Shown here in pieces: positions 58,704 to 63,254 of a stretch of DNA of 64,000 nucleotides. Below the pieces are notes generated by a model, which ran no database searches, was not told the DNA's origin, and worked only from the letters and a program-made list of their open reading frames with translations. The first letter of the stretch is position 1. Every line of letters begins with the position of its first letter. Made by a program: the position numbers and the translations under genes. Source of the stretch: Gammaproteobacteria bacterium (GTDB taxonomy: Bacteria; Pseudomonadota; Gammaproteobacteria; Tethybacterales; G965206325). The stretch is from NCBI GenBank assembly GCA_965206325.1, contig OZ242208.1, positions 186,603 through 250,602 on the forward strand. Direction: 5' to 3'.

Positions 58704-61700
58704 TTATTCAAAATCCATATCAATGCCGAGCGCGCGAATTTCGTGCACCAGCACATTAAACGATTCGGGCACCTCCGATTCCAAGCGAAAATCGCCGCTG
58801 ACAATGTTGTCGTACATTTTCGCCCGGCCGGCGATGTCGTCCGATTTTGCCGTCAGCATTTCGCACAGCGTGTAGGCGGCGCCGTAGGCCTCCAACGCCC
58901 AAACTTCCATTTCGCCGAATCGCTGTCCGCCCTGCTGGGCTTTTCCGCCCAGCGGCTGCTGCGTCACCAAAGAATACGGTCCCGTGGAGCGGGCGTGCAT
59001 TTTATCGTCCACCAGATGATGCAATTTCAGTATATAGGCGTAGCCGACAGTAACCGGACGATCAAACGCCTCGCCGGTGCGGCCGTCGTAAATTGCCATC
59101 TGCCCGGAAGACGAATGCCCGACTTCGCTCAGCAGATTCTTAATTTCAGATTCCGTCGCCCCGTCAAAAATGGGCGAGGCAAACGGCACGCCGCCGCTTA
59201 AATGGCGCGCCATTTCCAGCAATTCGGCGTCGCTAAATTGCGATAAATCCGCCCGCACAATGCCGTCCGGATTGTAGACGGATTCCAAATAGCGGCGAAT
59301 TTCATCCACCTGCTTGGCGCTTTCCTTCGCCAGCAATTTGCCGATTCCGTCGCCGAAAGTTTTGGCGACCAATCCCAAATGCGTCTCCAAAATCTGCCCG
59401 ACATTCATTCGGCTCGGCACGCCCAGCGGATTCAAAACGATGTCCACCGATGTGCCGTCGGCGAGATAAGGCATATCCTCCACCGGAACAATCTTGGAAA
59501 CAACGCCCTTGTTGCCGTGGCGTCCGGCCATTTTGTCGCCGACCTGCAGATTTCGCTTGATGGCGACATACACTTTCACCATCTTCAAAACGCCCTGCTC
59601 TAATTCGTCGCCTTTGGTGAATTTGATGCGCTCGTCGGCTCGGCGTTTTTCTTGCGCATCTTTTTCTCCGGCGAGTTTTTTGCCGAGCCGCTCAATCTGA
59701 TCGTTGATTTTTTCATCGGCGACGCGCAATTCAAACCATTGCTCCCGCGTTAATGCGGCGAGGGCGGTTTTGGTAATCTTGACTCCGTCCTTGATGGAAT
59801 TACCCACCGTCCTTTTCGCCAGCCGTCCGGTGACGAATCCGCGAATTCGCTCAATCGCCCCGTCTTGTTGGATTCGCAGCGTATCGCGCAAATCTTTGGC
59901 GTGCTTTTCCAATTCGCGGGCGATAATGTCTTCAGCCCGGGCGTCGCGATCAACGCCGGGGGCGGTGAAAACTTTAACATCCATCACCGTGCCGGACGCT
60001 CCGGGCGGCAGCCGCAGCGAAGTGTCTTTAACATCGGACGCCTTGTCGCCAAAAATCGCCCGCAGCAATTTTTCTTCCGGCGTCTGCGGACGCTCGCTTT
60101 TGGGCGTAACCTTGCCGACCAGAATATCGTCCGGATGGACTTCGGTGCCGATGTGGACAATTCCCGAATCATCCAAATTCGCCGTCGTCTGCTCCGACTG
60201 ATTCGGAATGTCGCGGGTGATTTCTTCCGGGCCGATTTTTGTTTCGCGCGCGCGAATGATATGCTCCTCAATGTGAATGGAGGAAAATCGCTCTTCGGCG
60301 ACGACCCGCTCCGAAATCAAAATGGAATCCTCATAATTGAATCCATTCCACGGCAGAAAAGCCACCAGCAGATTCTGTCCCAATGCAATTTCGCCCAAAT
60401 CGGTGGCGGCGCCGTCGGCGATAACATCGCCCGCCGCTACAATATGCCCTTCCTGCACAATCGGCTGCTGATGCACAATCGTGTTTTGATTAGAACGGGT
60501 GAATTTGGTCGGACGATAAATATCCACGCCGACATCGTCCGGGTCGTCGGAGTCAACTTCCTCCTCGCGGACGCGAATAACGATGCGGGCGGCGTCAACA
60601 TAATCCACCGTGCCGCCTCGCCGCGCCGACAAAACCGCGCGCGAATCCTCCGCCACTTTTCGCTCAACGCCGGTGCCGACCAGCGGACAATCGGGCTTTA
60701 AGCACGGCACCGCCTGCCGCTGCATATTAGAGCCCATCAATGCGCGATTGGAATCGTCATGCTCCAAAAACGGAATCATCGCCGCCGCCACCGACGCAAT
60801 TTGCGCCGGGGCGACATCCATATAATCCACTTCGCCGGGCGGCGATAAAATAAATTCGCCGTCCTTTCGGCACGAAATTACCGCATCGGTGAAATTGCCG
60901 TCCTCGTCCACTCGGCTGTTGGCTTGGGCGACGACGAATCCCGCCTCTTCAATCGCCGACAAATACACAATGTCATCCATGGCGCGGCCATCCTTGACGA
61001 CGCGATACGCCGTCTCCAAAAAGCCGTAGCGATTCACCCGCGAATAAAGCGCCATGGAATTAATCAGTCCGATATTGGGGCCTTCCGGCGTTTCAATCGG
61101 ACACACCCGACCGTAATGAGTCGGATGAACATCGCGCACTTCAAAGCCGGCGCGCTCCCGCATTAAGCCGCCCGGACCAAGCGCGGAAATTCGCCGCTTG
61201 TGCGTAACCTCCGAAAGCGGATTCGTCTGATCCATAAATTGCGACAACTGGCTGCCGATGAAAAATTCCATCACCGCCGCTTTAATTGTCTTTGCGCTGA
61301 TTAATTCATGCGGAGTCAAATTCTCCGTTTCCGCCTGCGACAGGCGGTCGCGAATAGCGCGCTCCACCCGCAGCAGTCCAGCTTGAAAATGATTCTGCAC
61401 AAATTCGCCGACCGACCGCACCCGCCGATTGCCCAAACTGTCAATATCGTCGGCGCGGCCTTTGCCGTTGCGAAGGTGCACCATCACTTTGACGACCTGC
61501 AGAATGTCCTCGCGCGAAAGCGTCCGCTGCTCTTCCACGGCGACTTCAATGCCGTCCTTGTAAAAAGTGCCGTCGCGCGAAATTTCCGCCAGCAACTTCG
61601 CCTTGGAAGAATCGCCCCCGGCGACTCGGCAGGCGAGGGCGACGGCGTCTTCCCGATTCGCCATATTCTCCTGCACCGGACGAACAATTTTCTGCGATTT

Positions 61701-63254
61701 CTGCGTTTGATAGCGATAAGTGTCGACGGTGAATTCAGCGGCGGCTTCATCGCTCCAACCTTCAATCGCCCGCAGATTCTGCACAAGCCGTTTTCGCACC
61801 GATTCGCCCTTGTCCATTTTGCGAATAACGACGCGATATTCCATTTCCGGACGGGGCGGATTTTCCGGCGCGCCCTTGGGAAGAGCGGCGTTAAGGCCGG
61901 CATCCAGCCGCCGATTCAATTTCATCCGTCCGACCGCCGACAAATTGTATCGGTCGGGCGATGCAAACAAATTCTCAAAATACGCGTTGACGACTTCCGC
62001 ATTCGGCGGGTCGCCCGGGCGCAGCATTCGGTAGACGGCGATGCGCGCGCCTCCCTGATCCAACTTGTCGTCGGACGCCATCGTGCGCGAAATGTAAGGG
62101 CCGCAGTCAAATTCGTTGGTGTAGATGGCTTCAATTTGCGCGATTCCAACAGCGCGCATTCTCCCCAGCAAATCGCCGTTAATTTCGTCGTTGGGATGAG
62201 CGATAATTTCGCCGGTGGATTCATCAATGATGGTCTTGGCCAGCCGCCGTCCGTTGAGAAATTCATCCGGCACCGGATGAAATCGCCAGTCCGCCTCGCC
62301 GAGTTTTCGCAGGTCGGCGGCTTTAATGCGGCTGTCTTTGCGGACGATGATATTGCCGTCGGCGCCGGTTAAATCAAAGGGCAGAGTCGCGCTTCGCAGG
62401 AATCGCGCATCCAATTGATATTCCGCCTTGCCCGATTCGCCGCCGAGCCGAAACCCTTCAAAGTCGTAAAATTCAGCGAGAATGTCCTCGTCCGAATAGC
62501 CGTAAACTTTCAGCAGCGTCGTCACTGGCATTTTGCGGCGGCGGTCAATTCGGAAGTAGACAAAATCCCGCTGGTCAAATTCAAAATCCAGCCAAGAGCC
62601 GTTGTAGGGAATGACTCGCGCGCTGTAAATCACTTTGCCGGACAGAGTCGAGCGGCCGAAATCGTGCTCAAAAAACACGCCCGGCGAACGATGCAACTGG
62701 CCGACAACAACCCGCTCCGTGCCGTTTAAGATAAAGGAGCCGACCTGCGTCCTTTTGGCAAAATAGTATTGCCAAAAGAAAATTTCTTCCTGCCAATCCT
62801 TTTCCTTTTTGGGAATTTGAGGGAAGGGCTCTCTGTCTTCCGCCACCGCCATCAGCGGCACTTCGCCCATGTGGACCGGATGCTCGCGGGCTTCCTTGAT
62901 GGTTTTGCCATCCTTTTCCAAAAACACCATGCGGATGCGGGCGAGGATTTTCGCCCTGTAAGTGAGTCCCCGCTCTTTGCATTCGCGGACGGTGAATTGC
63001 GGCCGCTCCAAATCGTAGCCGAGAAATTCCAGACGGCAATTGCCGTTGCTGCTGACGATGGGAAACACCGTCTCAAACGCCGCCTGCAATCCCTGATACT
63101 TGCGCTCGCTGGAGGCGGCATCCGCCTGCAGCAGGCCGCGGTAGGATTGAATCTGCGCGTCCAGCAGCGGCGGCATTTCAGCCGCGCGGCGGGGCAGTCG
63201 CACTTTGGAAAAAGAGCGGCGAATCCGCTTTTTTTCAGTGAAGGAATAAGTCAT
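58704..63254 (-). CDS. rpoB: RNA polymerase beta subunit with two lineage-specific insertions
   Basis: [12 protein letters not shown] start, [38 protein letters not shown]. Confidence 0.99.

Follow-up and report, generated by a model that had tools for sequence, protein, structure and literature searches.

The gene rpoB in a 64,000-nucleotide stretch of a Gammaproteobacteria bacterium genome (contig OZ242208.1, positions 186,603 to 250,602 of the forward strand, assembly GCA_965206325.1; this whole stretch is called the window below) codes for an RNA polymerase (RNAP) beta subunit carrying 127 amino acids (aa) that are specific to its lineage. This insert is a translated and constrained part of beta, and its core is under purifying selection. 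We hold, with moderate confidence, that it is a lineage-specific, orphan accessory domain in a surface loop of the beta2 lobe, at the site known as beta-i5. The domain would be a two-layer sandwich of the type found in ClpS and in the C-terminal domain (CTD) of ribosomal protein bL12 (L7/L12), held on a Pro-rich tether, and would not belong to the BBM2 modules.

The insert, its constraint and its site

The rpoB gene occupies positions 58704..63254 on the minus strand and encodes a protein of 1516 aa from an ATG at 63254 (MTYSFTEKK), according to the open reading frame (ORF) list, Pfam and the gene calls of related strains. All six RpoB Pfam domains matched the product. We defined the boundaries of the insert by comparison with the beta chains of Escherichia coli and Pseudomonas. 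It covers aa 451 to 577 (61524..61904, minus strand) and takes the place of the nine-residue loop 410 to 418 of E. coli beta, in the beta2 lobe. In a phmmer search against PDB chains, its boundaries corresponded to L409 and I414 of E. coli beta. An initial annotation of the window, made by reading the sequence, had reported about 125 aa between RMKLNRRL and TLSREDI, and the insert was found exactly where it had been placed. The Pro-rich linker noted at its start was also evident on reading the sequence. The linker has about 20 residues (aa 451 to 470; 61845..61904, minus strand) and is probably flexible, as the modeled part of it had no regular structure and a low predicted local distance difference test score (pLDDT). 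It is followed by a folded core of about 105 aa (aa 471 to 577; 61524..61844, minus strand), in whose sequence strand-like and helix-like patterns alternate. Structure prediction and structural searches, described below, point to a ClpS/L12-CTD-like topology for this core. Both flanks are conserved. The N-terminal one, which sets the upstream boundary (aa 435 to 450; 61905..61952, minus strand), aligns with E. coli beta up to residue 409 and with Bacillus subtilis beta from 264 to 279. The C-terminal one, which sets the downstream boundary (aa 578 to 611; 61422..61523, minus strand), aligns with E. coli beta from residue 414 and with B. subtilis beta from about residue 376.

The insert was then compared among strains. 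Genomes of the same lineage were reached via the exact bL12 protein and the RpoB cluster. This gave 14 closed or near-closed genomes, mostly circular contigs of 1.95 to 1.99 Mb from one assembly of the European Nucleotide Archive (ENA), plus one NCBI genome. All 14 RpoBs of the 90% cluster were 1516 aa long and carried the insert in frame, and no indel or frameshift was found within it among the 14 strains. In the DNA of 10 strains, the core of the insert had 8 synonymous and 3 non-synonymous segregating changes. The ratio of non-synonymous to synonymous polymorphism (pN/pS) was 0.11 for the core versus 0.06 for the remaining rpoB, and the chance of observing so few non-synonymous changes in the core under neutrality was P = 7e-4. 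Five amino acid polymorphisms were present in the whole insert, two of them in the linker (K460R and P467S), and their density was 2.6 times that of the remaining protein. The GC content of the insert, overall and at third codon positions (GC3), matched that of the rest of rpoB, and a search for direct repeats flanking the insert found none; a recent horizontal origin was rejected on these two grounds. The insert was in frame in the 14 strain genomes and its synonymous polymorphism followed the rpoB frame, which rules out an assembly artefact as well as an intein or mobile element. No intein-like junction residues were noticed on reading the insert sequence.

The segments that enclose the insert, RYDLxxVGRxKxNxxL and (I/L)(T/S)xxDI...DDIDHLGNRR, are those of the beta-i5 site of the beta2 lobe. 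The lobe insert of Firmicutes, located between RYDLANVGRYKINKKL and ITPADII...DDIDHLGNRR, occupies the same interval; the B. subtilis sequence used for this comparison was 100% identical to residues 264 to 436 of PDB chain 6wvj_C. According to papers that cite the nomenclature of Lane and Darst, this Firmicute insert is named beta-i5 (beta-ln5). Two BBM2 modules make up this insert, which measures 99 aa in B. subtilis and 121 aa in Clostridioides difficile, enlarges the lobe into one continuous globular structure and has no known function; the beta2 lobe has been called an insertion hot-spot in the literature. In a 2024 survey, most lineage-specific inserts of beta shared one fold, named BEAN, with a TGD/E motif. 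Such inserts have been described as one module type, BBM2/BEAN (PMC11515920), made of two antiparallel bracket elements, alpha1-beta2-beta3 and beta4-beta5-alpha6. The initial annotation knew of no description of anything of this kind. This was wrong for the site, which is the catalogued beta-i5, while the catalogued content, BBM2/BEAN, has a different fold. In the literature searched here, we found no paper on a ClpS-like or L12-like insertion in RNAP.

The insert and Firmicute beta-i5 thus have the same insertion point, a similar size (99 to 121 aa in Firmicutes) and a location in the beta2 lobe, where the Firmicute domain is surface exposed. They differ in content. Firmicute beta-i5 is built of BBM2/BEAN modules with a TGE motif (DPETGEIL in B. 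subtilis), whereas neither a TG[DE] motif nor any Pfam family was found in the 127-aa insert. Its predicted order of elements (beta-alpha-alpha-beta-alpha-alpha-beta-beta) is not the BBM2/BEAN bracket order, and no RNAP beta or BBM2 chain was present among its 50 best structural neighbors in the PDB. E. coli beta-i4 (SI1) and other BBM2/BEAN inserts are likewise lineage-specific exposed domains of the beta2 lobe, but beta-i4 has another insertion site (E. coli 225 to 343) and another fold. The RpoB studied here keeps a beta-i4-like region with a TGE motif in addition to its insert.

Other sequences occupy the same loop in related bacteria. We examined the 120 RpoBs closest to the query, which came from metagenome-assembled genomes (MAGs) of Burkholderiales and Betaproteobacteria and were about 62% identical to it in the shared core. 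A short loop was present in 104 of the 120, an insert of 71 aa in 9 and an insert of 20 aa in 2, with both kinds of insert exactly at the beta-i5 site. The position is thus both catalogued and repeatedly used. The 71-aa insert was found in Burkholderiales MAGs (RpoBs P0087, P0089, P0102, P0127, P0128, P0137, P0167, P0183 and P0189), with the consensus ..SWQxRLRxLALxKEAE..VRAYFxHAPELSLGKVSLEG..TE.EA.AAVDKMFQDLKAKGID..KLE.K.E. It resembles the 127-aa insert in its site, its broadly related hosts and its small predicted alpha/beta unit, but the two had no profile similarity (hhalign probability, 0.6%). The structure predicted for the 71-aa insert was of low confidence (pLDDT of 66.5; beta-alpha-beta-alpha-beta), and its structural neighbors were non-specific ferredoxin-like folds. 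The hosts are not closer either, because the query RpoB was about 62% identical to RpoBs with the 71-aa insert and to insert-free RpoBs alike. Kinship of the two inserts was therefore rejected. The C-terminal half of the 71-aa insert looks L12-like by eye, a likeness supported by no test. A third occupant of the loop, of 20 to 30 aa (AYPEK...EWLxxFYxRVGPxGxEG), was seen in Beta- and Gammaproteobacteria (P0144 and P0169, from Sulfuricella and relatives, and the fragment P0001).

Predicted fold of the core

The structure of aa 465 to 577 was predicted from the single sequence with AlphaFold2 (AF2), and the best of five models was used. This model had a mean pLDDT of 75.8 and a predicted template modeling score (pTM) of 0.67. 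It contained beta1 (472 to 480), alpha1 (484 to 495), alpha2 (502 to 518), beta2 (525 to 531), alpha3 (534 to 545) and alpha4 (549 to 558), followed by a C-terminal beta-hairpin (563 to 566 and 569 to 576). The order beta-alpha-alpha-beta-alpha-beta that had been proposed from the sequence matches this model, which has one extra helix and the terminal hairpin besides.

When the model was compared with the PDB by Foldseek, ClpS proteins or L7/L12 CTDs made up the top 33 or so matches and nearly all of the top 43 or so. The ClpS matches had probabilities of 0.99 to 1.0, with template modeling (TM) scores of 0.50 to 0.56 when normalized to the query and of 0.59 to 0.73 when normalized to the target. 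The L12 CTD neighbors had target-normalized TM scores of 0.64 to 0.73 (2zjq_5, at 0.73; also 8yeq, 1ctf and 1dd3), and the best matches of both kinds lay between 0.70 and 0.73. In the independent BFVD library, the top matches were phage ClpS/COG2127 and RplL proteins, plus uncharacterized ones. ClpS ranked above L12 in both structure libraries. The core of the insert therefore probably has a ClpS-like fold. The guess that it is of the bL12/ClpS type is supported at moderate confidence, as AF2 and Foldseek gave almost only ClpS and L7/L12 CTDs. The resemblance lies at the level of the fold only, and may reflect remote homology or a simple fold reached by convergence.

Several points weigh against our reading of the insert. 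The fold was called from one single-sequence AF2 run, as there were no homologues from which an alignment could be made, and the other four models had pLDDT values of only 61 to 68. The Foldseek E-values were weak (0.06 to 0.3). The pN/pS ratio of the core comes from 11 segregating sites in one population. Finally, partner, phenotype and structure are unknown even for the well-studied Firmicute beta-i5, so that a role can be assigned only by analogy.

Role and origin of the insert

Following this analogy, the domain would project from the outer face of the lobe, like Firmicute beta-i5, and would stand outside the catalytic machinery. It could offer an additional surface for docking a partner protein, or it could tune the movements of lobe and clamp in initiation and elongation. 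A docking or regulatory role would be the most likely one. Docking fits the predicted fold because the two canonical representatives of this ClpS-like fold both act as protein-protein adaptors, a parallel that names no partner. Roles of this kind have generally been proposed for lobe inserts, among them Firmicute beta-i5 and E. coli beta-i4, the latter described as contacting TraR/DksA-type factors. If the model is right, an adaptor-type fold sits at beta-i5, the lobe loop accepts unrelated domains, and a new building block is added to those that decorate RNAP. The practical value would be modest, since the organism is uncultured and even the well-studied lobe inserts have no known function.

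It is possible, although we find it doubtful, that the insert is a passenger, that is, an orphan that arose de novo or from an unrecognizable source and folds within a permissive lobe loop while serving no specific function. Under laboratory conditions, E. coli can dispense with beta-i4. Across lineages, the inserts found at the beta-i5 site are unrelated and vary in length (20, 71, about 100 and 127 aa), and the same RNAP has two further lineage-specific expansions (see below). The raised density of amino acid polymorphism in the insert is also what a passenger would lead one to expect. Homologue searches point in the same direction. A search of a word-indexed collection of 5.8e9 proteins with the insert alone gave no homologue, within a range that seemed limited to proteins of less than about 1.75 times the query length. 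Such a limit would miss full-length RpoB, and the search was therefore repeated with full-length RpoB as the query. Only one 90% cluster carried the insert, and the score dropped from 3415 bits to 1811 bits at the next best RpoB. Insert peptides likewise gave no match when scanned against GTDB genomes, JGI metagenomes and IMG/VR; the lineage itself was not present in the GTDB-representative and JGI metagenome scans. An exhaustive phmmer search of 1.84e9 representatives yielded a single marginal match, P0072 (E = 4e-4). Other insert-bearing RpoBs could hide in this library, which is clustered at 50% identity, but the full-length search, made at 90% clustering, speaks against this. What speaks against a passenger is the low pN/pS of the core, with its significant departure from neutrality, and the intact reading frame in all 14 strains. 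This constraint could, however, reflect the mere avoidance of misfolding within an essential protein.

The match to P0072 offers a different explanation, in which the AF2 fold is wrong and aa 492 to 558 or so are related to a helical repeat of Planctomycetota (WADxH..TGxWP..GETW..RGLxGGSSLARLLA). We regard this as improbable. P0072 is a Planctomycete protein with five tandem repeats of about 70 aa and no Pfam family. BLASTP of the insert against three of these repeats gave E-values of 4e-6 to 1e-4 at 31 to 37% identity, and the aligned sequences had W, D, T, S, E, R and G residues and an SS.A.LL motif in common. However, a profile of the repeat family (429 units from 78 genomes) gave the insert a score of only 6.7 bits, which shuffled inserts also reach (rank 3 of 5001), whereas a true relative should score better with the family than with a single member. 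Moreover, the E-value in the library search was inflated by the five tandem copies. Homology to the repeat was therefore rejected, and the match was taken as a best-of-billions chance event.

The repeat family is abundant in its own right. Units of about 66 to 70 aa (LTxxQILxWADxHxQRTGxWPTxxSGxI...GETWxxVxxALRxGxRGLxGGSSLARLLAxxRG; loci L004-L081) are arranged in tandem, in arrays that reach about 10 copies. There are several loci per genome, and the family is found chiefly in Planctomycetota and Verrucomicrobiota. Some of the arrays share a long ORF with a DEAD/SNF2-type helicase-like sequence.

The initial annotation favored another origin, namely, a bL12 domain captured by RNAP. In this scenario, the CTD of the adjacent rplL, with its hinge, was duplicated into rpoB and now acts as an L12-like recruiter of EF-Tu, EF-G or IF2 that couples transcription to translation. 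We consider it very unlikely. The proposed donor is an ordinary bL12 gene encoding 124 aa (63360..63734, minus strand; Pfam Ribosomal_L12_N, 1e-23, and Ribosomal_L12, 6.5e-29), which does lie directly upstream of rpoB, as annotated, on the same strand and about 1.5 kb from the insert. The bL12 CTD also has the fold class predicted for the insert (beta-alpha-alpha-beta-alpha-beta) and, like it, a flexible linker ahead of the domain, and L7/L12 CTDs are among the structural neighbors of the model in both libraries. Nevertheless, no trace of the donor was found in the sequence, even though rplL is so close. A BLASTP comparison of the insert with the bL12 of the same genome gave E = 47, and Smith-Waterman and semi-global alignments (BLOSUM62) had lower scores than 2000 shuffles did on average (z = -0.9 and -0.4, respectively). 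The insert had no match to Ribosomal_L12 (PF00542) at E <= 10, RpoB had no Pfam match to Ribosomal_L12_N, and no DNA repeat was shared between the insert and rplL. A phmmer search of the insert against all PDB sequences returned neither L12 nor ClpS. The blocks aligned by hand in the annotation were identical at 11 of 50 positions and, with the scores above, could not be set apart from chance. Other registers are equally plausible by eye; for example, hhalign and MAFFT both favored placing one 13-residue segment opposite the region of strand 2 and helix 3 in the 71-aa family. Sequence homology to the bL12 of this genome was rejected accordingly, as BLASTP, shuffled alignments, Pfam and DNA repeats were all empty. 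ClpS also fits the model better than L12 does.

Differences in architecture and surface agree with this. With about 105 aa versus 68 aa, the insert is some 40 residues longer than the bL12 CTD and has an extra helix and hairpin; it is embedded in beta and lacks the N-terminal domain through which bL12 dimerizes and binds uL10. The translation-factor-binding face of L12 is formed by helices 4 and 5, with E. coli residues K65, V66, I69, K70, R73, K81, E82 and K84. In a helix-anchored register set by eye, which had no statistical support, LRAIEG stands opposite VRAITG and retains the Arg equivalent to R73, and K65 and I69 are replaced conservatively (by R and V, respectively). The Arg noted earlier as part of the GTPase-recruiting surface is thus kept in this register, but most of the face is lost (V66 to K, K70 to Q, K81 to E, E82 to A and K84 to A). 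Furthermore, the lobe borders the downstream-DNA channel, whereas ribosomes couple at the RNA exit, which lies away from it. This location disfavors a direct tie to the translation machinery, and a transcription-translation link is speculative.

Still less credence can be given to the idea that the domain derives from ClpS and continues to act as a peptide or N-degron adaptor, or as a binder of Clp-type N-domains, bringing proteolysis or chaperones to RNAP. ClpS (PF02617; SCOP ClpS-like fold) provided the best and most numerous structural matches, including phage ClpS in BFVD, and short stretches are alike (YRVVI in strand 1 versus YKVIL in ClpS; RYQ at the end of helix 2 versus HYQ). However, the insert had no match to PF02617 at E <= 10, and its alignment to the verified sequence of E. 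coli ClpS was no better than that of shuffles (z = 0.4 and -0.5). As Pfam, phmmer against the PDB and shuffled pairwise alignment were all empty, sequence homology to ClpS was rejected. The N-degron pocket of E. coli ClpS is formed by N34, D35, D36, T38, M40 and H66. In a strand- and helix-anchored register, again without statistical support, only D36 is kept, while N34 is replaced by K, D35 by M, T38 by G, M40 by S and H66 by R. ClpS is also a free-standing N-degron adaptor of ClpAP, whereas the insert is embedded in RpoB and has the extra helix and terminal hairpin. Just as remote is the possibility that the domain truly belongs to the ClpS/L12-CTD superfamily, as a highly diverged member, and was recruited into RNAP to serve as a built-in adaptor that holds a partner on the lobe (a translational GTPase, the N-domain of a Clp-type unfoldase or the N-terminal peptide of a regulator); it would then provide this lineage with a hard-wired link from transcription to translation or proteolysis, of which we know no description for any RNAP.

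The surrounding locus and other expansions of the same RNAP

In the ORF list, rpoB was stretched by 29 codons at the 5' end to a GTG (63255-63341, minus strand). Strain gene calls and homology indicate that these residues are spurious and that the gene truly starts with the ATG at 63254. The gene rpoC follows on the same strand (53304-58694) and encodes 1796 aa. EF-Tu is also encoded in this operon region (locus L002). An Rfam scan of the whole 64-kb window gave no family at the gathering threshold and no tRNA or rRNA; in the same scan, no ribosomal-protein leader was found near the rplJL-rpoBC region.

The ENA assembly that supplied most of the strain genomes (ERZ25069326; loci L001-L003 and L082-L087) contains at least 13 co-assembled, mostly circular genomes of the same species from one sample, with coverage ranging from 7x to 97x. 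These strains differ by about 1% in rpoB.

RpoB has a second lineage-specific insert, of 33 aa, after GEVPLM (aa 136 to 168; 62751-62849, minus strand). It was not present in any of seven aligned Burkholderiales RpoBs, and a metagenome scan with it gave no match. The adjacent residues 158 and 159 vary among the strains (I/F and F/L, respectively). RpoC is expanded as well. Its residues from about 1080 to about 1510 (54165-55457, minus strand) form a region of about 430 residues, compared with about 48 in Pseudomonas beta' (chain residues 1066 to 1114). The expansion, which adds about 380 residues, lies inside the SI3 (beta'-i6) region of the trigger loop. Motifs of the type xVxDGxxVKKGDxxG are repeated within it, which suggests extra SBHM/HABAS repeats. 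Lineage-specific inserts are common in the two large subunits of RNAP, and this uncultured lineage with a genome of about 2 Mb has an unusually decorated enzyme, with 33 and 118 additional aa in beta and about 380 in SI3 of beta'.

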